Of a stretch of 64,000 nt of DNA, positions 1-64,000 are shown one piece after another. The stretch lies in NCBI GenBank assembly GCA_012813795.1, contig GCA_012813795.1_4087.1. The stretch is one strand, 5' to 3'. This DNA is from a phage. The notes beneath the pieces were generated by a model. That model had not been told where the DNA came from. It made no database searches and saw only the letters and a program-made list of their open reading frames with translations. Made by a program: the position numbers and the translations under genes. Position 1 is the first letter of the stretch. The number at the start of each line of letters is the position of its first letter.

Positions 1-34
1 AAAAAAAAAGAGTGACAAAGATATATTGTCACTC
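1..34 (-). terminator. rho-independent terminator downstream of 55..894
   Basis: 8-9 bp inverted repeat GAGTGACAA/TTGTCACTC (10-34) followed on the minus strand by U9 (plus A9 at 1-9). Confidence 0.6.
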
Positions 35-54
35 ATCATTATATCACCAGAAAC

Positions 55-894
55 TTATTTGTCCTGGGTATTTTCAGTAAATTTCTTCCACAGTAGTAAT
101 GTATTTTGACGAATTATTTCAATATGTCTTGAACTAAATTGTCTTTCATTATCGTCCCATAGTGCATCTGAATTCAAAAATGCAAGAAACACAAATGCAA
201 CATCTTCTCGTGGTACATTAAACACTGTATTGTTCGTACATACACGATCCATTGGTACAGGCATACCACCAGTACGATCACTGTACTGTAAGTCACGTGC
301 CACCAGATTTACATCTTTGACGAATTTATGATTGATATAAGGCTTCAGAACGTTAAGGAAGTCATTGTATCCATTATTGTGGTCAATTTCAAACATTACA
401 TGTTCAGTATTGTCCGCGTCTTCACAGTCGTTATTATTGCTATTTTTGAAATCAAAAAATCGCTCACTCATTCTACTGGAGTTTGAAGATGAACAATTGC
501 GTATACCACCAGAACGGCGTTTGAGATTTTCTAAATCTTCATCAGTACTGGAATAATAAGTAAGATCGTATGAATCATTACCAATAATAATACGCTTAGT
601 ATAATGGTTATAAACTATAAAGTCATAATCTTTAATACCAAGTAACATTAACTGGAATACTAATTCATCCGGTACATCAATGAGTGCATGTTCAAAGTCT
701 TCATATCTGGAACGGAATACAACATCATTAAATCCACGGTAGATAATAAAATTACCAAAGTCGTTATAATTTTCATGCATATGGACATTTTCATTTCTGA
801 TGTATTCAGACGAAGCTGGTGCAACACGGTCATCTTCTGATGCGTAATGATCAGTTTCTTTAACATTAAAGTTGATAATAAAATTTAATTTCAT
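55..894 (-). CDS. hypothetical protein, divergent FamA-like
   Basis: 279-aa minus ORF; variant motif DELVFQLMLLGI. Confidence 0.6.
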   Translation of the reverse strand: MKLNFIINFNVKETDHYASEDDRVAPASSEYIRNENVHMHENYNDFGNFIIYRGFNDVVFRSRYEDFEHALIDVPDELVFQLMLLGIKDYDFIVYNHYTKRIIIGNDSYDLTYYSSTDEDLENLKRRSGGIRNCSSSNSSRMSERFFDFKNSNNNDCEDADNTEHVMFEIDHNNGYNDFLNVLKPYINHKFVKDVNLVARDLQYSDRTGGMPVPMDRVCTNNTVFNVPREDVAFVFLAFLNSDALWDDNERQFSSRHIEIIRQNTLLLWKKFTENTQDK

Positions 895-907
895 AGTGCC
901 TCATAGA

Positions 908-933
908 CAAAAAGGCCGAGAATATTCCCGACC
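908..933 (-). terminator. rho-independent terminator (minus strand only)
   Basis: GGUCGGG/CUCGGCC stem is perfect only in the minus-strand RNA (two G-U pairs), followed by U5; lies downstream of 948..1256. Confidence 0.5.
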
Positions 934-947
934 TTTTTTATTATGTA

Positions 948-1256
948 TTAGTTTGAGGTTCCCCAGCAGTAGACTGGTTTCAAATTCTCAAGAGGATTAA
1001 CTTCAGGTTTCAGTACTGTAACGCGAACTTCATAAGTACTTCCATCTGCACGAGTCATTGTTTCATAATGAATACTTTCAATGAACGTTTCATATTCTTC
1101 TTGTGAACGAGCACGAACTGCTGAAGAGTATTTCTTCTTAGTATCCGATTTTAAGGTAACACTTACGAGTTCTGCTTCTTCGCCATTTTCAAGCTTGTTG
1201 AAATCAAACTCTGGTACACCTTCAAACATATCAAATTTCATTCCGTTGTCTTCCAT
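948..1256 (-). CDS. hypothetical protein
   Basis: 102-aa minus ORF in tiled array. Confidence 0.6.
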   Translation of the reverse strand: MEDNGMKFDMFEGVPEFDFNKLENGEEAELVSVTLKSDTKKKYSSAVRARSQEEYETFIESIHYETMTRADGSTYEVRVTVLKPEVNPLENLKPVYCWGTSN

Positions 1257-1310
1257 TTTAAATTCCTTTTTATATAATGTTTAATTAGTTTGTTTTAATA
1301 ATCGGAGATA

Positions 1311-1697
1311 TTACAGTACTTCGTATTGTAGTGTTCCGTGACGGAACTTCTCTAGCTGTGATAGTACTTCTTTACGTTCAACAATCTCTGGTACTTCTTC
1401 TTGAAGTTGATTACACACTTCAACAATGAAATCCCAATCTGAATCACAATTCTGACGAACAGCTTCAATTGTTTTCCAGTCAGTACTGATTTCACCTTCG
1501 TCATTGCGATAGTTAGGCCATGCACGACCGTAGTCACCTACTGTTTTATCATTCAAAACGCGAATTGCATTGAAAATCTGACCAGTACCAAAGAATTTAG
1601 TTTGTTTCATATCTTCTAAACAACATAGTTTTGGTTCACCTTGTACCTCGATGAGAAGTACACCACCAATTGCTTTTAGAATAGAACTTGTATTCAT
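1311..1697 (-). CDS. hypothetical protein
   Basis: 128-aa minus ORF. Confidence 0.6.
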   Translation of the reverse strand: MNTSSILKAIGGVLLIEVQGEPKLCCLEDMKQTKFFGTGQIFNAIRVLNDKTVGDYGRAWPNYRNDEGEISTDWKTIEAVRQNCDSDWDFIVEVCNQLQEEVPEIVERKEVLSQLEKFRHGTLQYEVL

Positions 1698-1763
1698 CTT
1701 TATCTCCGTTTATCAAAAAGATGCGAACATTATATCATTGAATTGTCATATGTCCAGATGATT

Positions 1764-2066
1764 TTAGACAATATTTTCAATCCAATTTTCAAAGTCTTGA
1801 ATTGCAAGGATGAACATATTCTCGTCTTGGAAGTCGAGGATGTGCTCGCTATATAGATAACTGATGTACTTACTGTCCTCTGTCTTTGTATTGTGCTTAC
1901 AGTTCATGATAAGCATTTCAACAGCACGCTCATATGAACATGGATTCAAATACAATTTAGTACCATCAGGGTGAACAACCTCTACTGCTCCTTCAGGAAT
2001 AAAACGTTTCCCAGTATTAGGAGTATATGGTTGTGTCAAAAATTTAATTTCAAATTTAGTATCCAT
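1764..2066 (-). CDS. hypothetical protein
   Basis: 100-aa minus ORF. Confidence 0.55.
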   Translation of the reverse strand: MDTKFEIKFLTQPYTPNTGKRFIPEGAVEVVHPDGTKLYLNPCSYERAVEMLIMNCKHNTKTEDSKYISYLYSEHILDFQDENMFILAIQDFENWIENIV

Positions 2067-2086
2067 ACTAAATCTATCTCCATGTA

Positions 2087-2923
2087 TTAACTTACTCTTT
2101 CAATATTTTCGAGAATAGTATTAACTATACTCATCTTACCACCTAACTGTTGGTAAGTTTTCAACTTATTAACTATGCCTTTACGTAAGATATCAAGAAT
2201 CTCGTACTGCTTAGGGTTCAGTACTAACTCTGCTTGAAATGCTGCCAGAGGATCAAAAATACCAAGCAATGATGCATCAGGTACATCCAGTTCTAATGTA
2301 AACGAATGTCGGTATCCAGCGGTTATAGTGGCGATTGTTTTATCGCCTGTACTAGTGATATCCAAATCACACATTACTGGGCGACCATCATCACTTGTAT
2401 ATCTAAAAAAAGCAACACTACGCATAATAATACCGTCTGATGACAAACGTTCTTGGAGTGTGATGTTGCTTTCTTCTGTACCTTGTGTTAGACGGAAAGT
2501 TGTTTCAAATGATCGTACATTATTTTCAACAGTATATTTTGCAAATCTATCAGTACTGTGAATAGAAACTATACCCTTGGCATTAACTCTACGATTGAAA
2601 ACTATATCATTAATCGTAGTATCTCGGTAACGAATTGTATCTTCTGACTTGTAATAATGGACTGATGGTGTGTTGAATATTTCAGACTTAAGATCTGAAT
2701 CATATTCGTATGATAGTGAAGTTTCATAAGTTTCATTATTACGAATATTAATATCTAGTGTCGAAGGACGGATATTGTTTTTTACAGAAACAGTATATCC
2801 TGTAATGTTATAAACATCATAAGATTCTCCATTTGCTGTTTTAACTGCACCAAATGTTTCAGGATTCTCAGATAGAATCTTGATATGATCAAGTACTGAA
2901 TACTCTTTGAAGTTTAAGAACAT
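2087..2923 (-). CDS. hypothetical protein
   Basis: 278-aa minus ORF. Confidence 0.6.
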   Translation of the reverse strand: MFLNFKEYSVLDHIKILSENPETFGAVKTANGESYDVYNITGYTVSVKNNIRPSTLDINIRNNETYETSLSYEYDSDLKSEIFNTPSVHYYKSEDTIRYRDTTINDIVFNRRVNAKGIVSIHSTDRFAKYTVENNVRSFETTFRLTQGTEESNITLQERLSSDGIIMRSVAFFRYTSDDGRPVMCDLDITSTGDKTIATITAGYRHSFTLELDVPDASLLGIFDPLAAFQAELVLNPKQYEILDILRKGIVNKLKTYQQLGGKMSIVNTILENIERVS

Positions 2924-2945
2924 TTACATTTCCTCGGACAAAAAA

Positions 2946-3083
2946 TTAGTCGAGATAAAATCTCGACTGGTGTTTAATTTTTCCATTTTTGACAGCTTTC
3001 TTGCGGTCCACGTGCACTTGAGCCTTATTAAACTCATTACAGTGCTTTGCAACAAAGTTGTTTACTTTAGATTTCTTAGCCAT
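2946..3083 (-). CDS. small highly basic protein (45 aa), not in ORF track
   Basis: Hand-translated MAKKSKVNNFVAKHCNEFNKAQVHVDRKKAVKNGKIKHQSRFYLD; GGAG SD 5 nt upstream of ATG; fills the gap between neighbours; hairpin GTCGAGAT..ATCTCGAC overlaps the 3' end. Confidence 0.45.
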   Translation of the reverse strand: MAKKSKVNNFVAKHCNEFNKAQVHVDRKKAVKNGKIKHQSRFYLD

Positions 3084-3085
3084 AA

Positions 3086-3559
3086 TTACTCCAGGTATGG
3101 ATCTTTCACTGTAAGGCTCTCGATATCACTTGCATATAGAACTACATTGACTTGCTTCTCAGATACTTTAAAGTCATGATAACTATCTTTGATTATGAAG
3201 TTGTCAAGTAGAAAACCCTTGGTAACGCACATCATAATTTTATCATCTTTAATAGTATATGTATTTTTCTTCTTATGCACTTCACTCTGTGGTGTGATAG
3301 AAGGATCATTACGAACAACACAATCAATATATTCTTCATTTGTATTCATTGGAATACCCATAATAAATGAGTTTTCAGTACTGATAGTTAGTATAAAAAT
3401 ATTAGTACGTGGACAATGGAAATGTTCATACATTGACTTGCTGCACAAGAAAAGGCATTGGATAATGTCTCTTACGTTAAACATTATATCATGCACTTTG
3501 AAAGCGTCCAACTCTAAAATGTCATCAATCTTTCCGTTTTCAACAGTTTTAATCTCCAT
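3086..3559 (-). CDS. hypothetical protein
   Basis: 157-aa minus ORF. Confidence 0.6.
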   Translation of the reverse strand: MEIKTVENGKIDDILELDAFKVHDIMFNVRDIIQCLFLCSKSMYEHFHCPRTNIFILTISTENSFIMGIPMNTNEEYIDCVVRNDPSITPQSEVHKKKNTYTIKDDKIMMCVTKGFLLDNFIIKDSYHDFKVSEKQVNVVLYASDIESLTVKDPYLE

Positions 3560-3599
3560 GATCTATCCTTGATCGTCATCGCACATCCATGTGCTGGTG

Positions 3600-4100
3600 T
3601 TACGACACAGCGTTTTCGTAATATTCTATTGCTTCCGAGATATTTTGAATTGCCTGTGCCTTTAATGATTTGTTATAGCGACCAGTAAATGAACCTAAAT
3701 TCTTAATGAGATCAAGAAATAATGGAAGTACTTCAGATGTATCAGTAAAATCACACTGATATAAAGTTCCCATCTGGAACAATTCACCGCCGTCTACGCA
3801 CAACGTGTTAAAGTCTTTTTGTACTCCCTTTTCTTCATTGAAAATGAAATACGAAGTCCCCATGTGGTGAAGATAAACACCATGTTCATCCTGAACGTGG
3901 CAGGGGGTAATACACATCGCCGTATTGTCAATATTATTTACTATCGTCAAACGGAGGCTATGTAATCCGAAAACTACAGTACTATTGAGTGTACTGCATT
4001 GTAAATGGTCATTGGTGATAGTAACTTTACTTGTCCTTTTGTCATCGAATGAACGTGTAATCAAAGAAATGCAAAGTTTCATATCAGTTGTTAGTTTCAT
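3600..4100 (-). CDS. FamA paralog
   Basis: 166 aa; motif GGELFQMGTLYQ. Confidence 0.65.
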   Translation of the reverse strand: MKLTTDMKLCISLITRSFDDKRTSKVTITNDHLQCSTLNSTVVFGLHSLRLTIVNNIDNTAMCITPCHVQDEHGVYLHHMGTSYFIFNEEKGVQKDFNTLCVDGGELFQMGTLYQCDFTDTSEVLPLFLDLIKNLGSFTGRYNKSLKAQAIQNISEAIEYYENAVS

Positions 4101-4542
4101 CCAAAATACCCTTAATATGTTTGATTAAATTGACTAGTACTGATTTATCAAATGGATTATTTAGACCAATACACTCGTACTGGAATAAGTCACCATCAAG
4201 AATAACATCTAAATCAATATCTAACTTCTTATTGTTGGTATCAAACATAGTAACATTATCAGAAGAAACTGTCAACACTTTTTGTGAATTTTTAATCTTA
4301 TTACTGATATAAACATCAATAAGTAATTTACTGTTCACTGTAACCGTTTCAAAGATGATTTGACTAGTACCGTAAATGTATTTTACTGAATTATGTATTC
4401 GTGAATATTTTAATTTGTATAAATTAATACCATTGTACTTACATTTGGTATCAATTTTTAATTTGCATGATAAGATAGCATTAACTAATTCATTTATATT
4501 AGTTAATCTTGTTTTGGCTATCGATAAAGTTGGTAAATTCAT
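4084..4542 (-). CDS. FamA paralog
   Basis: 152 aa; motif DGDLFQYECIGL; start uncertain (44-nt overlap with upstream gene). Confidence 0.6.
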   Translation of the reverse strand: MNLPTLSIAKTRLTNINELVNAILSCKLKIDTKCKYNGINLYKLKYSRIHNSVKYIYGTSQIIFETVTVNSKLLIDVYISNKIKNSQKVLTVSSDNVTMFDTNNKKLDIDLDVILDGDLFQYECIGLNNPFDKSVLVNLIKHIKGILDETNN

Positions 4543-4963
4543 TATGTAATACCTTTAGGCATTGTAATGTTTCTGACATGATATTTGAATCGAACTCAAT
4601 ACTATCAAATTTGATAAATGTACTTTGTGTGAAGAAGGTAGATTCCACATCGGTTGAATAAAATGATTCATCAAAGAGATTAGTACTGAACATACCAGTT
4701 TTCTTTTTAAAGAACATCATAAATTTTGAATTATAACGAATGACGGCTTCATCTTTATTAATGATTATACGAGAAATCTGTGTTCTCGTTTGGGTGAGAA
4801 TATTGATTTGGAAAACATTTTTCTTAACTTCAACAATATCAACCATATAACCATCCCCACTATAAAAGTTACTTCTAACTTGGATTGGCTTTGATGTGAT
4901 ATTGATAATAGCGTCTTGAATAAAAAAGTTTACCGTATCAATGTTTCCTAAAATGTCTAACAT
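4499..4963 (-). CDS. FamA paralog (divergent)
   Basis: 154 aa; motif STFFTQSTFIKF. Confidence 0.55.
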   Translation of the reverse strand: MLDILGNIDTVNFFIQDAIINITSKPIQVRSNFYSGDGYMVDIVEVKKNVFQINILTQTRTQISRIIINKDEAVIRYNSKFMMFFKKKTGMFSTNLFDESFYSTDVESTFFTQSTFIKFDSIEFDSNIMSETLQCLKVLHNEFTNFIDSQNKIN

Positions 4964-5481
4964 AAATTCTCCTTAATAGCTGTCATATTTACGAGAAATT
5001 CTTCAAGTACTTCCTCTGTAATACGCTCTGTATACCAGAATATCACAATATCTTTTGAAAGACGAACATTCATAAAAATATCTACTAACTCTCTGTAGTA
5101 CTCTAGAGTTTCTAGATCTTTTAGAATTAATGAGTACTGAAACATAGATTCTTCAGTTAACTTAAATTCTGGATATAGTAATTCGTTAAATTCAATTGAT
5201 TCAATCTGTACTTTTATTTCTTTGAAGTTATTGGTTATACAACCTGAATAATTATTTCGGTACAACGCGGCATAATCCAGGAATTGTGCTTTGTGATTAA
5301 AATCAAGAACAGTTTCACCTTTATATGACAATCGGTGGAACGCCGAGAACCTTGTAATTTCCCACGGTTGCTTAATATCTAGTTCTGTAATATCAATTTG
5401 ATTGTGCATAAGATCTGTGAAAATCTCACCAATCTTTAATAGTAACTTAGTACGTACCAGTACTGTCATTGGATCAGTCAT
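4957..5481 (-). CDS. FamA paralog
   Basis: 174 aa; motif EESMFQYSLIL. Confidence 0.65.
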   Translation of the reverse strand: MTDPMTVLVRTKLLLKIGEIFTDLMHNQIDITELDIKQPWEITRFSAFHRLSYKGETVLDFNHKAQFLDYAALYRNNYSGCITNNFKEIKVQIESIEFNELLYPEFKLTEESMFQYSLILKDLETLEYYRELVDIFMNVRLSKDIVIFWYTERITEEVLEEFLVNMTAIKENLC

Positions 5482-5900
5482 TATACACCTTCATATTCAT
5501 CAAGAAAATCTTCGATAATCATTTCAGCTTCATCCATATGCATAGCATCAACTTCAACAATACGAACTTTAGATGTATCCCAAATCATATAACTAGGAAC
5601 ATTGTCCGGCTCGTATTCATTTTTGTACTGAACTGCATCGTAACCTTCAGTATCACAATACTCAATAAGTGATCGCCATTCGTCATCACTACCCAAATCC
5701 TCACACAGAAGCACGTTATCAACGTCAACTTCTAATACATGCAAGTACACTGTGTCAGCATCAACAACGTTCAGTGGGCTTCTCAGCTTGCGTAATGCAG
5801 CCTCAAGAGCACTATGCTTCCCTCCCATATGCAAACCACCATACGGAATGTAGAAGTTGTCAATTTTAACAGTACTTGCATGGTATAGAATCATCATCAA
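5481..5900 (-). CDS. hypothetical protein
   Basis: 139-aa minus ORF; no FamA motif. Confidence 0.6.
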   Translation of the reverse strand: MMMILYHASTVKIDNFYIPYGGLHMGGKHSALEAALRKLRSPLNVVDADTVYLHVLEVDVDNVLLCEDLGSDDEWRSLIEYCDTEGYDAVQYKNEYEPDNVPSYMIWDTSKVRIVEVDAMHMDEAEMIIEDFLDEYEGV

Positions 5901-6496
5901 TCCTCAGTGAGAATACAGTTCAGGTACGAACACAGTTCATCGTAAAAGAGTTTGTCCAGCACTGTAAGATAACAGATACCGTTCTCTTTCATTGCAGCCT
6001 GTATTTTATCATAACCATTCACTGTGTCAAGGATTTCTTGATAAGATAATGCATCATCGTTAACAGTACTGCTCTGGAATGCCATTTCTTCTATGTTATC
6101 GATGGGTTCCTCATCGGAATTTAAGAAGCCTCCATTTTGATATATAATGTAATCTTCATTCCATGATTTAGTGAAACGGAGCAGGATGGGTTCATTAGCG
6201 AACATTTCGATATCGCCACTTTCAATGTCGTATGAACAATATAGATTACAGTCTTCATCTATGAATTCTGCCATAAAGATTGCAGTTCGAGAACCATCAT
6301 ATACATAAACTCCAGTTTTGTTCATCTCAACATCAACTGCCATTCCATTTTTGAATTGCATTCGAATCGTGATTTTAAGACTTTGGAGTATGTTATTTTC
6401 TGTATCTTTAACACTATACAATCCACGATATCGTAACCACAAATCTTTGATAGTACTTAAAGAAATGATTAAGTCTTCATTGGGATCTTTTTTCAT
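5897..6496 (-). CDS. FamA paralog
   Basis: 199 aa; motif EEMAFQSSTVND. Confidence 0.65.
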   Translation of the reverse strand: MKKDPNEDLIISLSTIKDLWLRYRGLYSVKDTENNILQSLKITIRMQFKNGMAVDVEMNKTGVYVYDGSRTAIFMAEFIDEDCNLYCSYDIESGDIEMFANEPILLRFTKSWNEDYIIYQNGGFLNSDEEPIDNIEEMAFQSSTVNDDALSYQEILDTVNGYDKIQAAMKENGICYLTVLDKLFYDELCSYLNCILTED

Positions 6497-7098
6497 TCTG
6501 GAATTACCATGTCCGTAATTAATGTGGGCTGTTCAATACATTCAGGGTTAATAACAATGAACATTTTACGTAAACTTTTCACTTTGTACCAATCATTCAG
6601 TACTGAAACCATCAGCCACAATTCTTCTGGTGTAGTGGTAACTTCACCGAGTACACTCATTTGAAACAAAGCACCCTTGCAATCTTCAAGTGAAGTCAGT
6701 TTTGTTTTGTATCCTGATTCAACATCCATGAATGTTTTTGTCTTAGCATCGTATACGATGTACACACCCTTACCATCATCTAAAGTTAAAAATACCGGAG
6801 AGCCAGTGCTAAATTTACATTCATTAAACTCAGGAAACAGGTCATTAACTTCTTCATCTGGAACTTCTGTCAATTCCAGTGCTGAATAGTCAGTATAGAT
6901 ATTAGTAATCTCAATACTATATTTGTTGTACCAAGTCGCAAATGGTGTAGATTTACCTTTTTTGAATAATTTAAAATCACTTTTTGAACCGTACTTTTGG
7001 AATAGTTCTTTTTTAGCTTTAACTAAATCAGGGGCAATAGCTAATAAATCACGTAGTGCTTTTTCGTATTGTAAGTATTCTTTTCTGATATTACTCAT
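6493..7098 (-). CDS. FamA paralog
   Basis: 201 aa; motif KGALFQMSVLGE. Confidence 0.65.
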   Translation of the reverse strand: MSNIRKEYLQYEKALRDLLAIAPDLVKAKKELFQKYGSKSDFKLFKKGKSTPFATWYNKYSIEITNIYTDYSALELTEVPDEEVNDLFPEFNECKFSTGSPVFLTLDDGKGVYIVYDAKTKTFMDVESGYKTKLTSLEDCKGALFQMSVLGEVTTTPEELWLMVSVLNDWYKVKSLRKMFIVINPECIEQPTLITDMVIPE

Positions 7099-7630: not shown

Positions 7631-7632
7631 TA

Positions 7633-8235: not shown

Positions 8236-8236
8236 A

Positions 8237-56444: not shown

Positions 56445-56675
56445 TTACATTCCAACCATTGCCGCACGAATTGCAGTAGTGCTATACTTAAAGCCGTCCG
56501 GCGTTGACTGACCGCGTAAAGTATCCATCATTAGCCGGGCGGCGGCATCGCGGTTATTTGTCTCATTGATGCAATCCAGGGCGTGACGATACAACCAGCT
56601 ATCATTGTTAATCCAAAGGCTTACATTCCAATGAGTTTTGTTTTTGTGACCTAAGAACATTTTTGATTTAGCCAT
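56445..56675 (-). CDS. hypothetical protein (paralog of 57230..57469)
   Basis: 76 aa; shares GHKNKT.WNVSLWINND..LYR and PDGFKYSTTAIRAAMVGM with 57230..57469. Confidence 0.6.
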   Translation of the reverse strand: MAKSKMFLGHKNKTHWNVSLWINNDSWLYRHALDCINETNNRDAAARLMMDTLRGQSTPDGFKYSTTAIRAAMVGM

Positions 56676-56880
56676 TTTGAAAATCCTCGTTTGATTTGAG
56701 CGGGGAACTATTCCCCGTCCTGATGTAAAACATTATACGCCTTTAAACATAGTTTGCAAGTACTTTTTAAAAATAGTTTTAATCACTTTCCTATAGATAC
56801 ACTCCCGCACCCTATGGGCTATCGCCTTGTATCCGGCTTGTAAGTATTATCTCACTAAGCCGGATAATGGTCAAGTACTT

Positions 56881-57147
56881 TTATTCAAGTACTGCAATCT
56901 TTTTAGTACGGTACACAGTAACACGGTTGCCCTTGCGGTCGTGCTTTATTTCTACCACTCGACGCGATACACTATCAGGACTTTTTAACGCCGATAACCA
57001 GTACTGTAACGATCTGGCGGTGCTACGCTTTACAATGACCCAACGTTCACCCCTGGCTGATTGTACGCCCATATCTTTAAACGTTGCACCGTCAACCTTT
57101 GCCGCTTGCCGAGCTTGTTCACGCGTTTCAAAGTATATAATATTCAT
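56881..57147 (-). CDS. hypothetical protein (paralog of 45566..45970)
   Basis: Track ORF trimmed to MNIIYFETREQARQ... Confidence 0.6.
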   Translation of the reverse strand: MNIIYFETREQARQAAKVDGATFKDMGVQSARGERWVIVKRSTARSLQYWLSALKSPDSVSRRVVEIKHDRKGNRVTVYRTKKIAVLE

Positions 57148-57229
57148 GCTGATACCCCATCGTTGATGTATGAATAAAATCCTATTATAAAGTACTATCA
57201 CCGTGCAATAGTACTTTAAATCTATTCTC

Positions 57230-57469
57230 TTACATTCCAACCATCGCGGCACGGATCGCCGTAGTGCTATACTTGAATCCGTCTGGAGTTTTATCTTGTC
57301 CAGTTTGCTCTAAAAATAGCATCATATGACGGGCCGCATCATTACGATTAGTATTAGCGTCGATAAATTCTTTCGCCAGACGATACAATGACTCATCGTT
57401 ATTAATCCAAAGGCTTACATTCCACTGAGTTTTGTTTTTGTGACCGTTGAAAGTTTTAGTAGTAGCCAT
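57230..57469 (-). CDS. hypothetical protein (paralog of 56445..56675)
   Basis: 79-aa minus ORF. Confidence 0.6.
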   Translation of the reverse strand: MATTKTFNGHKNKTQWNVSLWINNDESLYRLAKEFIDANTNRNDAARHMMLFLEQTGQDKTPDGFKYSTTAIRAAMVGM

Positions 57470-57554
57470 AATTAAAAATCCTCTTAATTATAGTGGGGAA
57501 CTATTCCCCACCTGATAGAAAGTATTATACGCCTTTAAACTTAGTTTGCAAGTA

Positions 57555-57788
57555 CTATTTTTTCAGTACTGGTAAACCTTTGATCTCACCTGGCTGTACT
57601 TCCTCAAAGGTCGCCGCCATCATACGGCTATCATCTTCCTTGCACTCTTCCATTGCATCACAAAAATGATTAATAACGTCCGGTGCAACGTCAACCACAT
57701 CAAACAAGCCAACCTCAGTGCAACGGCTTAAAGCGTTTAACAGGTCAGTCAGTGCAACGGATTGAGAAACAGTTAAGATAGTACTCAT
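57555..57788 (-). CDS. hypothetical protein
   Basis: 77-aa minus ORF. Confidence 0.55.
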   Translation of the reverse strand: MSTILTVSQSVALTDLLNALSRCTEVGLFDVVDVAPDVINHFCDAMEECKEDDSRMMAATFEEVQPGEIKGLPVLKK

Positions 57789-57882
57789 AAAATTAATCTC
57801 TTAATTATAGTGGGGAACTATTCCCCACCTGATAGAAAGTATTATACGCCTTTAAACTTAGTATGCAAGTACTTTTTAAAAC

Positions 57883-58245
57883 TTATTCGTAAATCTTGCC
57901 ACTGTCAGCCCATACCAGGAAACGCGGCATATTATCCCATGCATCTTGTTTCAAGTTTAAGCCGTGCAATACTTCTGTACTTTCCATCCCTGGTACTGGT
58001 TTACTATACACCGCAAACATTTCGCCCATGTACTGATACGCCATCGTTAAATCACTGGCGATCATCTTATGGATCATCGCATCAAGCATCACAGTAGCGG
58101 CGTATTGTTCACGCTTAAGCGGCAACATTGCAATCAATTCCCGATAAGCTGAAATATGAATCTTTACAGTCTCAGCCGGAAGATCTTTCATCTCTTCGCG
58201 AAAGTTAACCAGGTTAGCAATGATTTTAGTGATTTGAGTCGCCAT
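57883..58245 (-). CDS. hypothetical protein
   Basis: 120-aa minus ORF; last gene before the non-coding hub. Confidence 0.6.
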   Translation of the reverse strand: MATQITKIIANLVNFREEMKDLPAETVKIHISAYRELIAMLPLKREQYAATVMLDAMIHKMIASDLTMAYQYMGEMFAVYSKPVPGMESTEVLHGLNLKQDAWDNMPRFLVWADSGKIYE

Positions 58246-58564
58246 CGTTTTAATTCCTATTAAAGTGAGTTAGGAGCGTTTCCCCCGTCTCGATGTAAAA
58301 CATTATACGCCGTTAAACATAGTATGCAAATACTTTCTGCAAATACTTTTAAAATAGTTTTCTTTCTATATAGGAGTACTATCATTCAGTACTGAATCAA
58401 TCCAGGGAGTACAATTATTCAGTACTATACCCTCAAAACGTCCTCAGTCGCTTTCTAACGCATTAATACACCTAAGCTATACATTTGCACCACTCCCAAC
58501 AATCCAGGGCTTTACGGGCCGTTTAAACGCGTTAAATTATTTTCAATTATTTTGTTTTTAGCTA

Positions 58565-58592
58565 TTGACTCAGTACAGAAAAAGCGTATAAT
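58565..58592 (+). promoter_or_regulatory. plus-strand sigma70-like promoter in the non-coding hub
   Basis: TTGACT-N16-TATAAT; downstream non-coding sequence carries the conserved CCCCAGGGGGTGC box. Confidence 0.45.
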
Positions 58593-58779
58593 TACTACAT
58601 AGACGCGAGAAAGCGGATACCCCAGGGGGTGCGGAACTACGCCCAAAATTCAGTAAATTTAAAAAGGATACACTCCCGCACCCTAGCAGGTCAAAGCACT
58701 TTCTCAGTACTGAATCATAGTACCATAGTACGCCCCATGATAGCAAGCAAATTAATTAAAACTTTTTGCATCCAGGGTA

Positions 58780-58807
58780 TTGCTTTATTTTTCCAGTACT
58801 GTATAAT
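58780..58807 (+). promoter_or_regulatory. plus-strand sigma70-like promoter in the non-coding hub
   Basis: TTGCTT-N16-TATAAT; downstream non-coding sequence carries the CCCAACGGGTGC box. Confidence 0.4.
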
Positions 58808-58904
58808 AGTTCCATCAAGTCGAGAAAGACTCAAGCCCAACGGGTGCATAGTTACGCCCAAAATTCAGTACTAGATTATTTTTTAAAAATATTCATCCAG
58901 GCGG

Positions 58905-58933
58905 TTGACATTGCCCCCAGTTTATTAGATAAT
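58905..58933 (+). promoter_or_regulatory. plus-strand sigma70-like promoter in the non-coding hub
   Basis: TTGACA-N17-GATAAT, followed by GGGGAAACCATCCCC hairpin. Confidence 0.45.
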
Positions 58934-59030
58934 GATTCCAGATTCAGAAAAATCTAACTCCAGATACTGCGGGGAAACCATCCCCACGCGGTAGGGGAAC
59001 TAATGGAAAAAACAGTATAAAATTTTGATT

Positions 59031-59170
59031 TAGCCGTCTATACATCCAGACGTTTAGCCGTCCAAACGTCTAGCGGTACAGCCATCTAGCAGTACAGCCA
59101 TCTAGCCACCTAGAGGGATAGCCATCTTTACTTCCAGACTTCTGGAGGGCTAGACATCTCTACGTCCAAA
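59031..59170. repeat. iteron-like cluster (candidate origin, packaging or partition site)
   Basis: Reiterated ~11-bp units TAGCCGTCTA / TAGCCGTCCA / CAGCCATCTAGC x2 / TAGCCACCTAG / TAGCCATCTT / GGCTAGACATCTC plus palindrome CCAGACTTCTGG. Confidence 0.55.
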
Positions 59171-60000
59171 ATCCACACAGGGTTACTACGCCCAAAATCC
59201 GTCAGTACTATACCATAGATCTATCTTTGAGAAGGGAGTATTCAGTACTGCCATCATAGTCCTCACTATGTTACCCTAGGAGGATGAAGACTATCATGTA
59301 GTACTGAATACTTTTAAGGGGAATATCATCACATTGCGTGATGCATTATATATTAGATTAATATCAGTACTGCTACCATTCTGTTAATAACAGTACTGTT
59401 TATATTACGAAAAAAAGAGGTTGTCAAAGATGAACCACTACATAGGAGGATTCAATCTCTTCTGTACTGTCTCACGACAGGGGGAATAAGGCTCTGAATT
59501 GTTTGCGGCAATCCATCACTCTATGTAGAACATTATACAGTACTGAATCATAATGTCAATAACTTTCTTACATTTGCAGTACTAAAATCGTATCTTCTGT
59601 ATCTCTTCAAAACTCATTATATCCCAATAATCCTATATGTCCCAACGTGAATTCCAACTTTCGAAGATCCAACTTTTATTTCATAGGTACTCCAAAATTT
59701 TTACGATCCAGATTTACGATGGAGTACTAACCAACTTTTTGCTGGAGCCTCAAGGGGTATTCGGAATTTTCCCCAATGGGTAATCGGGATTTTTGACGAA
59801 GGGTAAATTGAACTTTTTTGAATAGGTGATTGGGAGTTTTCAGTACTGGTCATTCCGTGATTACTTTTGATTACATTTGACATGTTATGCAAAGTTGCAG
59901 TACGGTAAAAATATGTAAATTTTGGGCGACTTCATTTGCCTACTTAGTGGGATATCAGTACTGAATCATATAGGGGTAATCCTTCAGTACTGAATACTTT

Positions 60001-60120
60001 CCTGTACTCTAGTACACTCTATTACACTCTAGTACTCAATACTAATCACTACTAACCACTACAATGATTATAAATGATTACTTAAATGTTTATATATGAT
60101 TACTTATGACTACCTATGAT
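60001..60120. repeat. short direct-repeat cluster
   Basis: TACACTCT x2, TAATCACTAC/TAACCACTAC, ATGATTAC x4. Confidence 0.5.
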
Positions 60121-60163
60121 TACGGGGTTTAGCCTGGGGAGAATCCTAGTGATCGCATTTGTC

Positions 60164-60228
60164 CAGGCTGAATTTTAACAATTCAGACGTCGAGCAGGCT
60201 GAATTTTAACATATGCAACATATGTTAA
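60164..60228. repeat. 17-bp direct repeat plus 10-bp inverted repeat
   Basis: CAGGCTGAATTTTAACA x2 (60164-60180, 60194-60210) and TTAACATATG-caa-CATATGTTAA (60206-60228). Confidence 0.6.
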
Positions 60229-60270
60229 AGCCTGTATAATGCTTACACTACGGAGCTTCCCCTAGCTATA

Positions 60271-60513
60271 TTACTTCCTATATATAAGCATTAAGATATA
60301 GTAGTACTGATTGTACTGATTGTACTGATTGTACTGATTGTACTGATTGTACTGATTGTACTGTACATTCTCTTTAACAGGACAAGGGTCTATTGCTATA
60401 TTAGTACATCTATACAATTCATATCTATTAAAGGGTAGTTCTATGAGAGATTTAATCCATACTTGTTCATTCTCTTTGAGTTTACTTATATAGAAGTCTT
60501 TATGATTATCCAT
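60271..60513 (-). CDS. FamC paralog with internal (YNQ)n repeat
   Basis: 80 aa; MDNHKDFYISKL...; C-terminal YNQYNQYNQYNQYNQYNQYYYILMLIYRK encoded by the 9-bp tandem repeat. Confidence 0.6.
   Translation of the reverse strand: MDNHKDFYISKLKENEQVWIKSLIELPFNRYELYRCTNIAIDPCPVKENVQYNQYNQYNQYNQYNQYNQYYYILMLIYRK
60301..60363. repeat. 9-bp tandem repeat (x7) inside a coding region
   Basis: TGTACTGAT x7 on the plus strand, i.e. (CAG TAC AAT)n = (QYN)n on the coding strand. Confidence 0.8.
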
Positions 60514-60706
60514 AGATATATATTAACAACATTAGGTTAGAGTATAGTGCTTTAGTGTCATCTTGTTCTAGAGCTTCAATTGAGTTCGTTGTAGCTTTCC
60601 TAAAGCACATTTTTGCGTATGCACTTTTTGGATTAACGGGGGCGGTGGCTTCGCACCAGATTCTTTCGGTGGTTGATAGTTTACTCATATAGTATTCTTT
60701 ATACAT
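60506..60706 (-). CDS. FamC paralog
   Basis: 66 aa; MYKEYYMSKL...LMLLIYIYG. Confidence 0.6.
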   Translation of the reverse strand: MYKEYYMSKLSTTERIWCEATAPVNPKSAYAKMCFRKATTNSIEALEQDDTKALYSNLMLLIYIYG

Positions 60707-60707
60707 A

Positions 60708-60896
60708 TTAGTACCTGAATATAAGTAGTATAATGTTATAGTACTGATTAGTACTGCTAAGATTCTCTATAGAGCGAATAACAGTTAGGGAGTAGTTATA
60801 CTTGGAGTATGCATTATCCAGTGGGACTTTATATTGAGCACTAAGTGATAGTTCTGTAGGGAGAGTACTTAAGTAGAATTCTTTATGGTTTTGCAT
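60708..60896 (-). CDS. FamC paralog
   Basis: 62 aa; MQNHKEFYLSTL...ILLIFRY. Confidence 0.6.
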   Translation of the reverse strand: MQNHKEFYLSTLPTELSLSAQYKVPLDNAYSKYNYSLTVIRSIENLSSTNQYYNIILLIFRY

Positions 60897-60897
60897 A

Positions 60898-61086
60898 TTA
60901 GTACCTGAATGTTAGCATTGTTATGTAGTACAGCATATATGGATTGTCATCGTATATTAGGGTGTACTTAGTACATTGTTGGAACATTATTTTTGCATGA
61001 TCTTTTATGCCAATAGGTTTTGTTGGCACATGGTGTTGGAGATGCATTGGGAGATGATCTTTATAAAATTCTTTATAGTTGTTCAT
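60898..61086 (-). CDS. FamC paralog
   Basis: 62 aa; MNNYKEFYKDHL...ITMLTFRY. Confidence 0.6.
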   Translation of the reverse strand: MNNYKEFYKDHLPMHLQHHVPTKPIGIKDHAKIMFQQCTKYTLIYDDNPYMLYYITMLTFRY

Positions 61087-61087
61087 A

Positions 61088-61273
61088 TTAGTACTTATAT
61101 ATTAGTAAAAGGATGTGATACAGTACTCGATTATAGTCGTCAATATCTATCGAGGATTTAGTGCACTTAACGAAGTAGTCTTTTTCGTAGTCTTTTTCTA
61201 TACCCAATGGTTCTGTTGGTACAAGGTATTGTAGATGCATTGGGAGTTTATCTATGTAGTATTCTTTATACAT
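61088..61273 (-). CDS. FamC paralog
   Basis: 61 aa; MYKEYYIDKL...LLLIYKY. Confidence 0.6.
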   Translation of the reverse strand: MYKEYYIDKLPMHLQYLVPTEPLGIEKDYEKDYFVKCTKSSIDIDDYNRVLYHILLLIYKY

Positions 61274-61288
61274 ATTAGTCCTTAGTCC

Positions 61289-61489
61289 TTAGTACTGGAA
61301 CGCGAGATACAGGGTGTGGTACAGTTGTACTTGAGAATTGTTTTCATTAACTTCTTCATTAAGTACTTGTTCAGTACAATTGCGGAAGTAATCAGCTTCA
61401 TATATACAGTTAATGTCGCGAGGTTCATCATCTAATAGATTGCCTTGTAGAAACTTTGGTAGTTCTTTAATATAGAATTCTTTATACAT
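61289..61489 (-). CDS. FamC paralog
   Basis: 66 aa; MYKEFYIKEL...LYLAFQY. Confidence 0.6.
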   Translation of the reverse strand: MYKEFYIKELPKFLQGNLLDDEPRDINCIYEADYFRNCTEQVLNEEVNENNSQVQLYHTLYLAFQY

Positions 61490-61497
61490 ATTAGTCC

Positions 61498-61692
61498 TTA
61501 GTACACGAACGTGAGGTACAGGGTGTGGTATAGTGCTCGATGATAGCTATCATAATCTTGTATACATGCTTTAGTGCACATAATGAATCTTGCTTTATTA
61601 ATCTCTGTGTTTAAGTTTCTAGGATGTTCTAGGTGATCGATTATGTACTGTGGGAAAAATTTTAGGTATAGTTCTTTGTGTTCATTTTTCAT
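61498..61692 (-). CDS. FamC paralog
   Basis: 64 aa; MKNEHKELYLKF...LYLTFVY. Confidence 0.6.
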   Translation of the reverse strand: MKNEHKELYLKFFPQYIIDHLEHPRNLNTEINKARFIMCTKACIQDYDSYHRALYHTLYLTFVY

Positions 61693-61693
61693 A

Positions 61694-61876
61694 TTAGTAC
61701 CTGTATATAAGTGTTAGTACATTGTACAGGTTATAGATATCATCTTCATTTATTGCAGATTCTGTTTGATATCGGTAGAATATAGTTTGGCTCTTATCTT
61801 TGAAATCTACAGGTTCGCGGGGAATAAGCTTTTGTAGATCAATACTAAGAAAACTTATGTAGTATTCTTTATACAT
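61694..61876 (-). CDS. FamC paralog
   Basis: Track ORF 61694..61939 trimmed to MYKEYYISFL...; ends ...LTLIYRY. Confidence 0.55.
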   Translation of the reverse strand: MYKEYYISFLSIDLQKLIPREPVDFKDKSQTIFYRYQTESAINEDDIYNLYNVLTLIYRY

Positions 61877-62540
61877 AGTTTGTAATATACGTAATGAGGT
61901 GATGAATTTTCTTATTAGTACTGATAAGTTCATGTACATGTTTTGTTAGATTGTACGCGTTTTTGTACAGTACAGGGTTATCGATTACAGTACTGTACAT
62001 GAATAGTTCTTCTTCTGATAATTCTTTGCCTTGTAGTTCTTTGAGGAATTCTACAATTGATTTAGTTTCTTCTGTACGTTGTGCTTGCCAGAAGTGCATA
62101 TTCTCGTGTATTTCTTCTGCACCCATACTGTATATGCCACCCATTTGGAATTGTGCTGTATTGACATCGTGGGAGGTGTTACAATTCCCGAAGAAGTATG
62201 TATTCCCGAAGTATAGCATTAAAGTGCACGGGGTATTATCCAACTGCATATGGATGATGAAGGATGCGTTCTTTAGTACCTTCATGCTCGTATTAGTACT
62301 CAATACTTTTAAATCAGTATTATAGATATTCATATAATGAACAGCTATATTATTTTTCTTCATGTACAATTCAAGGTTCTTTGATACGTTAACTCCATTT
62401 GTACTGGTTTTTTTACTTTTCTTTAGGTTCTTTAGTACATTAGGATGATAAGTATATGCATTAGTGGTAGATTCAGCCTGGATTGATTGCAGGTACTTAA
62501 AGTGCTGTAGGTATCGTTTGCTTTGTGGATTAAGTTTCAT
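61869..62540 (-). CDS. FamA-like protein embedded in the FamC array
   Basis: 223 aa; variant motif EEELFMYSTVID. Confidence 0.6.
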   Translation of the reverse strand: MKLNPQSKRYLQHFKYLQSIQAESTTNAYTYHPNVLKNLKKSKKTSTNGVNVSKNLELYMKKNNIAVHYMNIYNTDLKVLSTNTSMKVLKNASFIIHMQLDNTPCTLMLYFGNTYFFGNCNTSHDVNTAQFQMGGIYSMGAEEIHENMHFWQAQRTEETKSIVEFLKELQGKELSEEELFMYSTVIDNPVLYKNAYNLTKHVHELISTNKKIHHLITYITNYV

Positions 62541-62551
62541 TTGGTTTCCTT

Positions 62552-62590
62552 AAATTGCTTATACTGCTTATACTGTTTATACTGTTACAA
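62552..62590. repeat. 9-bp tandem repeat (x3-4), intergenic
   Basis: TGCTTATAC TGCTTATAC TGTTTATAC TGTT just upstream of the 61869..62540 start. Confidence 0.6.
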
Positions 62591-62756
62591 GCGAGATTAT
62601 TTCTCTGTATGGGTTATTTTTTGTCAGGACGTGATGAATGCAGCTATTGAGATTAATAGTTTTAGTACTTTTTGTTCCCAGGTTGTAGTACTTCACGAAG
62701 GTGTCGTACATGAAACGATCCTTAGTACTGAGATTATCGGTGTAGTACTCTAGCAT
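62577..62756 (-). CDS. small Tyr-rich protein (59 aa), not in ORF track
   Basis: Hand-translated codon by codon: MLEYYTDNLSTKDRFMYDTFVKYYNLGTKSTKTINLNSCIHHVLTKNNPYREIISLVTV; AAGGAAT SD. Confidence 0.5.
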   Translation of the reverse strand: MLEYYTDNLSTKDRFMYDTFVKYYNLGTKSTKTINLNSCIHHVLTKNNPYREIISLVTV

Positions 62757-62766
62757 AGTTTATTCC

Positions 62767-62946
62767 TTATATAGAGATAAGTTTCAGTACTTCATTATAT
62801 GTGAACATTTCGTCCTGTGCCAATTTAGTACAATTCAGGAGTAATTTTCTTTGTTTTCTTTGCGAACTACAATGATAGCTCATTGAGAAGTAATTGAAGC
62901 CGTATCTATCTTCTGGGTAAATTACGCTTAGGTAGTATTCTAGCAT
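62767..62946 (-). CDS. small Tyr-rich protein (59 aa), not in ORF track; paralog of 62577..62756
   Basis: Hand-translated MLEYYLSVIYPEDRYGFNYFSMSYHC...; same MLEYY N-terminus; frame checked only at start and stop. Confidence 0.4.
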   Translation of the reverse strand: MLEYYLSVIYPEDRYGFNYFSMSYHCSSQRKQRKLLLNCTKLAQDEMFTYNEVLKLISI

Positions 62947-62954
62947 TGTATTCT

Positions 62955-63140
62955 CTACATTTCAATAAGTTTAAGTACTGCTCTGTACGTGTACTTAGTT
63001 GTTAGTGTTTCTTTTATAGCAGTACAGAAGTAATGTTGTTTGTCTCTAATACTGCCGCGTTTGTAGTACCATACATGGGAGTTGTGGCTGTACTTGTCTC
63101 TGTCGGATAGTTTTTGGTAATAGTAGCTTTTATGATTCAT
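62955..63140 (-). CDS. FamC paralog
   Basis: 61 aa; MNHKSYYYQKL...AVLKLIEM. Confidence 0.6.
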   Translation of the reverse strand: MNHKSYYYQKLSDRDKYSHNSHVWYYKRGSIRDKQHYFCTAIKETLTTKYTYRAVLKLIEM

Positions 63141-63349
63141 TGTAATGTAATTAGCCTTACTATATTAAAGTACTCGGTCCCTGTTGCACCTTGTAGAATA
63201 TTACGCACGACATGTTTGTGGTGCTGGATGATTGCTGAAGGTGCGGTTCTTTTAAGTTTTTTAAAAGTACTGAATTCTTGTTTAAGGATGAACTGTATAT
63301 CTTTAGGGAGAATATCTATGTAGTACTGATGAATGTTCATAGTTTTCAT
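63137..63349 (-). CDS. FamC paralog
   Basis: 70 aa; MKTMNIHQYYIDIL...IVRLITLQ. Confidence 0.6.
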   Translation of the reverse strand: MKTMNIHQYYIDILPKDIQFILKQEFSTFKKLKRTAPSAIIQHHKHVVRNILQGATGTEYFNIVRLITLQ

Positions 63350-63359
63350 ATAGCACCTT

Positions 63360-63551
63360 TTAGAACTTAAAGATGAGGTACATGATAGATAGGTACTTAG
63401 TTTCAGTAAACTGTTGTTCTATTGCATAACGTGTCTCCAACCTGAAATCGTAATTATAAAAGGGACTATTCTTTCTCATAGGTTCTTGAGGGAATGAGTC
63501 CCTGTATTGTTCGTGTAGTTTACTACAGTAGAAATCTTTATGATTATTCAT
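63360..63551 (-). CDS. FamC paralog
   Basis: 63 aa; MNNHKDFYCSKL...IMYLIFKF. Confidence 0.6.
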   Translation of the reverse strand: MNNHKDFYCSKLHEQYRDSFPQEPMRKNSPFYNYDFRLETRYAIEQQFTETKYLSIMYLIFKF

Positions 63552-63753
63552 AGAAGTATATTAGTCCGATTAAACTTGAGTACTGCATATTTTTGTTATT
63601 GCATTCAATAGCTTCTAGAGTACTACGTATACAATTATTAAAGCAATTCCTGGTGTTGGGTGTGTCTATACTTACAGGTGGTACACTCCTTAGAAACATT
63701 TGTTCTTCGTTGCTGAGGTATTTGGTGTAGAATTCTTTATGTTCAGTTTTCAT
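63544..63753 (-). CDS. FamC paralog
   Basis: 69 aa; MKTEHKEFYTKYL...LIGLIYFYE. Confidence 0.6.
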   Translation of the reverse strand: MKTEHKEFYTKYLSNEEQMFLRSVPPVSIDTPNTRNCFNNCIRSTLEAIECNNKNMQYSSLIGLIYFYE

Positions 63754-63754
63754 A

Positions 63755-63955
63755 TTAGTACTCCAATAGTAGTGTTAAGATGAAATAGTACTGCATACTT
63801 TCGTTACCTTCTATTGCATTCCAGATGAGGTTATTCCTGTTTGAGTTCAGGAGTCCTGGTATGCGTTTAGCATTTTTCAGTACTGTTTTTTGGTTCTTCA
63901 TTGCATCTTGTAGGCCAGGGTGCAATGCATTGATGTAGTACGGGTTAATGTTCAT
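63755..63955 (-). CDS. FamC paralog
   Basis: 66 aa; MNINPYYINAL...FILTLLLEY. Confidence 0.6.
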   Translation of the reverse strand: MNINPYYINALHPGLQDAMKNQKTVLKNAKRIPGLLNSNRNNLIWNAIEGNESMQYYFILTLLLEY

Positions 63956-64000
63956 ATAGCCACTAGTACTAAGATATTTAAAAATTGTTTACGGGTATCC

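Follow-up and report, generated by a model that had tools for sequence, protein, structure and literature searches.

The 64,000-nucleotide stretch of phage DNA analysed here (contig GCA_012813795.1_4087.1; hereafter the window) contains 258 copies of the palindromic hexamer AGTACT, compared with a mean of 19.0 (standard deviation 4.3, maximum 32) in 100 dinucleotide-preserving shuffles. The window belongs to an Asteriusvirus jumbo coliphage: it corresponds, as the reverse complement, to the first 65 kb of Escherichia phage A4 (ON286972.1, Asteriusvirus, 355.5 kb) at 96%-98% identity, and its identity to the phages 121Q, PBECO4 and G17 is approximately 80% across the shared parts. The reading that we favour, with a probability of about 0.4, is that a symmetric and probably dimeric protein, encoded by the RaK2-like phage clade and not by the host, recognises (C)AGTACT(G) in double-stranded DNA.

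Excess of AGTACT in the window and in the A4 genome

Against a first-order Markov model, which predicted 19.1 copies in the window, AGTACT was enriched 13.5 times (z = 54.7) and ranked first among the 4096 hexamers. An earlier note on this DNA had described the hexamer as several-fold over-represented, a description that the counts confirm and exceed; it had also put six sites in the first 3 kb, where the number is nine. The octamer CAGTACTG was found 66 times in the window against an expectation of 0.8. A fourth-order Markov model predicted 226 copies of AGTACT, but this is an invalid null because the motif itself raises the counts of its constituent pentamers AGTAC and GTACT. In the whole A4 genome, 922 copies were found versus approximately 100 expected (9.2 times). 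They were present in every 5-kb bin, with a peak in the putative early region, and were enriched in every gene-length class (1.7-3.0 per kb), late and structural regions included. Genes on the two strands of A4 were equally enriched (2.46 vs 2.07 per kb), and spacing was Poisson-like in the late half of the genome (coefficient of variation 0.96). The density increased 0-40 nt past stop codons and 30-70 nt ahead of starts, and the core GTAC was enriched 2.2 times genome-wide in A4. Two stretches of the window, 25780-33464 and 35491-39586, lacked the hexamer.

For coding DNA, the null was obtained by shuffling synonymous codons within each gene, with the proteins and the per-gene codon usage fixed. 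The window held 179 coding sites (80/36/63 in the three codon phases), whereas 200 such shuffles gave 58.8 +/- 5.8 with a maximum of 78. The corresponding counts for A4 were 382/135/265 by phase versus 116/40/69 expected (z of 20-34). Between genes, 77 sites were found in 8,490 bp of the window versus 3.7 expected. These results support the AGTACT excess as a signal at the nucleic-acid level and not a by-product of protein coding, because it survives synonymous shuffling in three frames, has symmetric flanks and occupies conserved positions.

An origin in base composition, codon usage, paralogous protein motifs or duplicated modules could be argued from the frequency of ST (AGT ACT), xVL and QY contexts, from the duplication of promoter modules and from the 226 sites given by the fourth-order model. 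We regard it as practically untenable, given the synonymous shuffles (z of approximately 20 or more), the intergenic count and the lack of an excess in control genomes of the same G+C content. Only 16 of the 179 coding sites fell at the F[QE] dipeptide of the FamA motif, and clustering of the flanks resolved the 258 window sites into 214 unrelated contexts. A paralogue or codon artefact is ruled out by the shuffles, the FamA count and the flank clustering together. The earlier note had named a z-score near zero, or an enrichment confined to FamA codons, as the outcomes that would speak against its claim; the values obtained were 54.7 and 16 of 179.

Shape and specificity of the motif

The flanks of AGTACT carried information only at positions -1 (C at 46%, background 16%) and +1 (G at 49%, background 19%). 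This mirrored preference was alike in coding and non-coding DNA; G was the rarest base at -1 (9%), and there was zero information at -2 or -3. Because only these two positions are informative, and in mirror image, the unit is best described as CAGTACTG, a palindrome of 8 bp built around a strict 6-bp core. Variants of the core with one base changed occurred at 0.5-2.4 times expectation, compared with 9.2 times for AGTACT itself (1.6-2.4 times for changes at outer positions, 0.5-2.0 times at inner ones), and the octamer positions -1 and +1 were partly fixed. The mirrored flanks, together with the equal enrichment in both gene orientations, point to a symmetric protein that recognises double-stranded DNA.

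Conservation and distribution among genomes

Individual AGTACT sites are under purifying selection. Between the window and A4 (96% identity), 223 of 235 sites were kept (94.9%, versus 85.8% for all hexamers), and 51 of 74 were kept between A4 and 121Q at 80% identity (69%, versus 38%). In the same comparison of the window with A4, 16 sites were gained and 12 lost, a rough balance. In the block without ACT described below, where AGTACA takes the place of AGTACT, 15 of 18 copies of AGTACA were kept between the window and 121Q (83%, versus 44% for all hexamers; 81% identity).

The distribution survey used sampled stretches of each relative and control genome. AGTACT was the top hexamer, at 8-21 times expectation, in the samples of 121Q (45 kb; 148 vs 12 expected), the Klebsiella phage RaK2 (83 vs 6.9), the Cronobacter phage GAP32 (181 vs 8.7), the Pectobacterium phage CBB (late genes; 65 vs 7.8), Serratia phage BF (174 vs 9.6) and Xanthomonas phage XbC2 (147 vs 9.1). 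No excess was seen in the samples of PA5oct, a distant relative infecting Pseudomonas (2 vs 7.5 expected), of T4, which has the same host and G+C content (7 vs 9.7), of E. coli K-12 (3 vs 4.8) or of Staphylococcus phage P954 (8 vs 9.9). The density in the phage was approximately 2.6 per kb, compared with approximately 0.06 per kb in the host sample, a difference of approximately 40 times. The signal thus tracks the RaK2-like phage clade and not the host, which argues for a phage-encoded cause; a general host-imposed bias is ruled out by T4 and E. coli, which lack the excess.

The excess is apparently undescribed for this clade, and the block without ACT is perhaps further still from anything described. 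Neither AGTACT enrichment nor an ACU-free block is mentioned in the papers on RaK2, CBB, PA5oct or Sharanji, and full-text searches for AGTACT with phage names gave nothing relevant; the GAP32 genome paper lay outside the search.

AGTACT at fixed positions in promoters

The part of the window at 39581..64000 (minus strand) consists of very short open reading frames (ORFs), every one of which has its own terminator and a sigma-70-type promoter close to the consensus. By analogy of this architecture with that described for the related phages CBB and GAP32 (PMC5259590), it is probably the early region. It holds 156 AGTACT sites at the highest density in the window (6.4 per kb), 72 of them intergenic. 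In a simple search for sigma-70-like sites on the coding strand, 28 of 57 carried AGTACT, and 26 of 38 did so in the early region.

The hexamer fell into a small set of offsets. At 17 sites it starts 7-8 bases ahead of the -10 hexamer (11 at -7, 6 at -8), which agrees with the earlier note's observation of promoter spacers of the form ..CAGTACTG TATAAT; the AATACTTGCAA family is an example. At a further 13 sites, AGTACT lies at offsets -27 to -31, abutting or overlapping the upstream edge of the -35 element, and at four it lies at -17/-18, where it runs into the 3' end of the -35 element (TTGACAGTACT). In several promoter families the hexamer is present twice, with starts 20-24 bp apart. In the model early promoter at 46000..46045 (minus strand), AGTACT-AT-TTGACA-N10-AGTACT-T-TATAAT, two hexamers at offsets -31 and -7 bracket the -35 and -10 elements, their starts 24 bp apart. 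The family ATCAC-AGTACT-A-TTGACA-N9-AGTACT-GG-CATAAT (52325..52362, minus strand; offsets -30/-29 and -8/-7) has five copies, near 52033, 52328, 49175, 48883 and 48623. The family AATACTTGCAA-N9-AGTACT-G-TATAAT (50440..50480, minus strand; offset -7) has copies near 50777, 50451 and 50222. The promoter TTGACAGTACT-N-TATAGT at 33700..33745 (minus strand; offset -18), in which the hexamer covers the 3' end of the -35 element, stands upstream of the operon that runs into the block without ACT. Promoters annotated by the authors of the GAP32 genome have the form AAA-AGTACT-TTGACA-N10-AGTACT-T-TATAAT, the same -29/-7 design in another genus and another host.

All these positions are within the RNA-polymerase footprint. 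An extended -10 element (TGn) has TG at -15/-14, one base upstream of the -10 hexamer, and offset -8 (six promoters of the AGTACTGG-CATAAT type) places the TG of the motif there. At offset -7 (11 promoters, AGTACTG-TATAAT), the TG is one base too near the -10 hexamer, and TGn explains neither the AGTAC part nor the copies near the -35 element. The promoter itself therefore does not seem to explain the hexamer, because TG matches an extended -10 only in the offset -8 class. The fixed positions, with an arrangement conserved in another genus, support a putative regulator-binding role at early promoters.

One early promoter family on the minus strand, with -10 hexamers at 40911, 43987, 47296 and 49755, lacks AGTACT. 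In this family, AAAAAGGGA-TTGACTCCGGTCAGTCCCTTTGC-TATTAT, the -35 element and the spacer form a hairpin, giving a combined terminator/promoter module; GAP32 has the like.

A block without ACT and an island without AGTACT

The longer of the two stretches without AGTACT contains a block of approximately 15 genes (25940..33464, minus strand) in which the trinucleotide ACT is absent from 7,526 nt of coding strand, compared with approximately 150 copies expected. On either side ACT occurs at approximately 20 per kb, and the log10 probability of its absence was estimated at about -63. The absence spans all three frames and the intergenic spacers, while AGT, ACA, ACG and ACC stand at normal levels inside the block. 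AGTACT is impossible here because the coding strand has no ACT (and the plus strand no AGT). Its place is taken by AGTACA (49 copies), AGTACG (7) and AGTACC (3); relative to expectation, AGTACA is enriched 14.8 times, AGTACG 6.4 times and AGTCCT 9.6 times. The FQYS of FamA is recoded in the block from TTT CAG TAC TCN to TTT CAG TAC AGT. As near-neighbours of AGTACT are kept, the pressure for the motif appears to act in the block too, overridden by a strand-specific ban on ACT.

The same block is present in A4 (31575-38554; 6,981 nt), 121Q (7,511 nt; 5105-12614 of the sampled stretch) and G17 (7,649 nt; 4978-12625 of the sampled stretch). Its proteins are approximately 80% identical between relatives, and just half of the block aligns as DNA. 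Outside it, A4 had no other such gene set and no ACT-free genes beyond chance. No trinucleotide-free block was found in GAP32 (1-80 kb) or in the sampled RaK2, CBB, PA5oct, T4 and E. coli sequences. The block proteins had no Pfam match, and their PHROGs matches were to families of 'unknown function' only. Most simply read, the block probably encodes transcripts that must survive an ACU-specific endoribonuclease, because the ban is strand-specific, independent of frame and confined to one block, and a single occurrence is evidently not tolerated. A word absent from one strand in all frames and spacers, and kept absent in diverged relatives, is what a set of nuclease-immune transcripts would look like. 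Similar logic applies to mRNAs without ACA, which escape MazF. If true, the block would be a natural, multi-gene version of the 'cleavage-site-free mRNA' strategy, so far mainly known from engineering, and would point to a new RNA conflict between phage and host.

An early gene at 45252-45503 (minus strand) encodes a protein of 84 aa with a ParE/RelE-like toxin domain (Pfam PF24732, E = 2e-10), annotated as 'YafQ-like ribonuclease toxin' in Klebsiella phages. The protein is 90%-98% conserved within Asteriusvirus; it is conserved in Asterius-, Alcyoneus-, Mimas- and Eneladusvirus, and detectable in RaK2, K64-1, GAP32, CBB, BF and jumbo phages of Yersinia, Erwinia and Xanthomonas. Its AlphaFold model (pLDDT, the predicted local distance difference test, 87) gave weak fold matches to YafQ, YoeB, RelE and HigB (E of approximately 0.1, template modelling score of approximately 0.5). 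The neighbouring ORFs showed no match to an antitoxin family, and the gene itself contains five ACT. As a candidate for the ACU ribonuclease, this protein is a lead and nothing more.

The second stretch without AGTACT, at 35491..39586 (4.1 kb, minus strand), is an island of approximately 18 tandem genes of approximately 70 aa. Here GTAC is at background (14 in 4.1 kb) and ACT is normal. The homologous stretches of 121Q and G17 also have no AGTACT. That an island of such age has stayed at background is evidence against a mutational drive acting uniformly. Other hexamers (CTTAGG, TATCAA and AACTAT) are locally enriched in the island.

Possible function of the site and alternative explanations

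In proposing a clade-encoded protein as the reader of (C)AGTACT(G), we infer three things: the site is read by a protein, the protein is of phage origin and it represses transcription. At early promoters, the sites abut the -35 element and fill spacer positions of about -20 to -14, inside the RNA-polymerase footprint. Occupancy would control early transcription by competing with RNA polymerase or locking it, most simply as a shut-off once the early phase is over. The dispersed sites, which number in the hundreds and give approximately 40 times the host density, would concentrate the protein, and anything that it recruits or excludes, on the phage chromosome. Of the roles suggested in the earlier note, a regulator-binding site is supported at promoters, a DNA-modification target would look the same as a binding site from sequence alone, and nothing specifically supports a recombination motif. 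Several observations weigh against our proposal. A Pfam scan of the 83 ORFs of the early half (37166-63955) revealed no obvious DNA-binding domain, nor any clear helix-turn-helix or ribbon-helix-helix family. The promoter modules are partly duplicated, so the 26 early cases are not independent, and 10 of the 12 early promoters that lack an exact AGTACT, the TTGACTCCGGTCAG family among them, seem just as strong. Approximately 780 sites lie inside genes, where a promoter regulator does not need them, and in late genes they are spaced in a Poisson-like manner that suggests no architecture. Furthermore, information held in 6-8 contiguous central base pairs resembles the site of a restriction enzyme or methyltransferase (or a small ribbon-helix-helix protein) more than a helix-turn-helix operator, which makes a methyltransferase target nearly as good a reading.

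According to this alternative, which we consider a real if lesser possibility, an orphan DNA methyltransferase of the phage acts on AGTACT or on its core GTAC, and sites are kept because, once methylated, they serve replication, repair, packaging or self-marking. The model is Highly Iterated Palindrome 1 (HIP1) of cyanobacteria, GCGATCGC: the nesting of GTAC in AGTACT in CAGTACTG would parallel that of GATC in CGATCG in GCGATCGC, the cyanobacterial highly iterated palindromes each go with a cognate methyltransferase (PMC4390886), and HIP1 sites are also conserved by selection (PMC5861425). A contiguous palindrome of 6-8 bp is what methyltransferases read, and the genome-wide enrichment of GTAC is in line with such a target. 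The phage has two DNA methyltransferases for which no partner nuclease was identified, a Dam-type enzyme of 173 aa (PF05869) just outside the window and a C5 enzyme, and homologues of methyltransferases are annotated in 121Q, GAP32 and XbC2. The Dam-type enzyme is widespread. The C5 enzyme of phage Sharanji is named 'modification methylase HaeIII' in its paper, and RaK2 is reported to have CpG methylation (PMC3622015); neither fits AGTACT. Substitutions in the sites lacked the C-to-T bias expected of 5-methylcytosine, and methylation alone leaves the fixed promoter positions unexplained. Phage P954, which has the closest Dam-type homologue outside the clade (47% identity), lacks the AGTACT excess, a result that is uninformative rather than negative. 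A role in RNA, with AGUACU acting as a processing, decay or binding site in transcripts or pairing with other copies of itself, seems improbable to us. It would suit the raised density 0-40 nt after stops and upstream of starts, and the block without ACT keeps and conserves AGTAC on the coding strand although the palindrome cannot be completed there, in a phage that probably does experience a constraint on ACU in RNA. But it gives no reason for a palindrome with mirrored flanks, for which the prior is approximately 1 in 1000 for an 8-mer, and many sites lie by the -35 element, ahead of the point where transcription begins. Enrichment outside the block is as low for AGTACA (1.9 times) as for its complement TGTACT (1.6 times), with no strand-specific pentamer signal, and the window had no Rfam matches.

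Replication offers another explanation, in which the phage primase-helicase primes or initiates in both directions at AGTACT, and the enrichment makes up for the rarity of six-base sites, which would otherwise not suffice for lagging-strand synthesis. Known phage primases recognise sites that contain GT (GTC for T7, GTT for T4), GTAC holds GTA on both strands, and a palindrome serves both strands simultaneously; the enrichment is also uniform, genome-wide, Poisson-like and independent of gene class and orientation. Known primase sites are asymmetric and 3-5 bases long, though, and priming leaves unexplained the fixed promoter positions, the three-fold higher density in the early region and the conserved 4-kb island without sites; we have no direct evidence for it and judge it improbable as well. 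About as improbable is a neutral molecular drive, in which sequence-biased repair or gene conversion keeps making functionless copies; such a model was reportedly proposed for HIP1 by Elhai. Sites in all contexts and frames, the rough balance of gains and losses and the higher density between genes than within them, as expected under weaker constraint, would all follow from it. Individual sites are nevertheless conserved far above background at three divergence levels, an argument already used against drive for HIP1 (PMC5861425). The 4-kb island is still free of sites in A4, 121Q and G17, stereotyped promoter offsets are common to different genera, and no Vsr-like enzyme is annotated. A site for a host factor is largely refuted. 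The most specific form of this idea, a decoy for the nucleoid-occlusion protein SlmA, draws on the SlmA site, GTGAGTACTCAC, which has AGTACT at its centre (PMC3020112), and on the Enterobacterales that are the hosts of most of the clade. SlmA reads a 12-bp site with G at position 1, T at 2, a purine at 3, A at 4, G at 5 and the mirror of these (PMC3020112), whereas the phage sites have C at 46% and G at 9% at the position next to the hexamer and no information further out than -1/+1. A4 has no full SlmA-type site, and its half-sites number 5 and 11 versus approximately 33 expected for each. T4 lacks the excess on the same host, and a clade member isolated on Xanthomonas shows it. The SlmA decoy is thus rejected on its flank requirements and on the phylogenetic distribution of the excess.

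The proposed site-reading protein could also be part of a wider scheme that takes in the block without ACT. In its joint form, AGTACT would be a virus-encoded 'self' tag, the viral counterpart of HIP1 or of a DNA uptake sequence, in a phage whose take-over programme would also include an ACU-cutting ribonuclease, to which the 15-gene block is immune through the loss of every ACU. A protein of the RaK2-like clade would read the 40-fold gap in density, steering the timing of transcription, protection, replication or packaging to the phage chromosome. We consider the two halves together rather unlikely.

Comparison with known systems

HIP1 is the closest analogue (PMC5861425, PMC4390886). Each is a palindrome of 8 bp whose central 6 bp are the stronger part, in at least ten-fold excess; the two also share their occurrence within genes in all frames and between genes, at sites conserved between relatives beyond background, in genomes with orphan-type methyltransferases. 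In its order-of-magnitude excess across the genome, in all frames and intergenic DNA and at conserved sites, AGTACT is HIP-like. Unlike HIP1, it is found in a virus and not a cell, its sequence is AT-rich and unrelated, it takes stereotyped promoter positions, its spacing is Poisson-like, other palindromes are purged from the same genome and its cognate methyltransferase is at most putative.

Phages also provide precedents. The stoperators of cluster A mycobacteriophages and the TF1 sites of SPO1 are cases in which a phage protein binds many sites on its own genome, early promoters included, and shuts transcription down. AGTACT resembles stoperators in being scattered in many copies over the phage's own genome and at its early promoters, and resembles repressor operators in overlapping core promoter elements at fixed positions. 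Stoperators, however, are asymmetric 13-bp sites, oriented with transcription and present at approximately 20-35 per genome, and the selectivity of TF1 depends on hydroxymethyluracil; AGTACT comprises approximately 900 symmetric sites of 6-8 bp, mostly within genes. DNA uptake sequences (DUS/USS) and Chi are likewise short, hyper-abundant words, also in coding regions, that act as tags read by a dedicated protein. Those words differ in being asymmetric, cellular and tied to competence or RecBCD, with which AGTACT shows no link. The SlmA site has the identical central hexamer and is a palindrome read by a dimer (PMC3020112); in AGTACT, the required G1, T2 and purine 3 are absent or disfavoured, and the distribution follows the phage clade.

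Approximately 900 selected copies in phages of 350 kb, in every sampled member of the clade, imply an abundant and so far unrecognised sequence-specific protein-DNA system in phages of whose genes more than 80% have no known function. HIP1 has been without an accepted function for approximately 30 years, and a phage, with its small genome, single infection cycle and easy mutagenesis, could serve as a tractable model. In practical terms, AGTACT is a simple marker for relatives in metagenomes, and it also predicts the behaviour of the DNA with ScaI and RsaI.

Purge of other palindromes

The avoidance of restriction sites is extreme in the same genome, the opposite of what is seen for AGTACT. GCGC was absent from A4 (214 expected), as were 22 of the 64 palindromic hexamers (507 occurrences expected in total in 355 kb), among them CCATGG, TGGCCA, GCATGC, CTGCAG, CAGCTG, GGTACC and GGATCC; five more were nearly absent. 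GGTCTC/GAGACC was missing from A4 too. AGTACT was the only strongly enriched palindrome (9 times), followed by GATATC at 1.7 times. Part of the 'restriction resistance' that has been reported for the DNA of RaK2 may be due to this purge.

Gene layout and further observations

All genes of the window are on the minus strand. The first part (1..25800, minus strand) consists of genes of 110-210 aa in close succession, the FamA paralogues among them, and holds 90 AGTACT sites, 86 of them coding (codon phases 46/15/25). Further small genes, also on the minus strand, occupy 25.8-39.6 kb, followed by the putative early region. Within the latter, the largely non-coding stretch at 58300..60050 has approximately 20 AGTACT sites and promoter-like sites on both strands. 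Many of these AGTACT sites are within the longer palindrome (ATG)ATTCAGTACTGAAT(CAT), represented by the inverted repeats I3, I7, I15, I20 and I24 and the direct-repeat families D2, D5 and D8. A scan of the window against Rfam gave no family matches.

In A4, outside the part matched by the window, a C5 cytosine DNA methyltransferase of 632 aa (292647-294545) is split by an intein with a LAGLIDADG homing-endonuclease domain. Two copies of a 70-nt unit, 71% identical to each other (58586-58655 and 58801-58870, plus strand), start with a plus-strand TATAAT and end in AAAATTCAGTA. They are the sole plus-strand promoter-like units in this minus-strand region and may correspond to small antisense or non-coding RNAs. 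A 9-bp unit that reads GTACTGATT on the plus strand and AATCAGTAC on the coding strand is repeated seven times in tandem at 60304-60375; the array contains the half-motif CAGTAC and lies inside or at the end of the ORF at 60271-60513.

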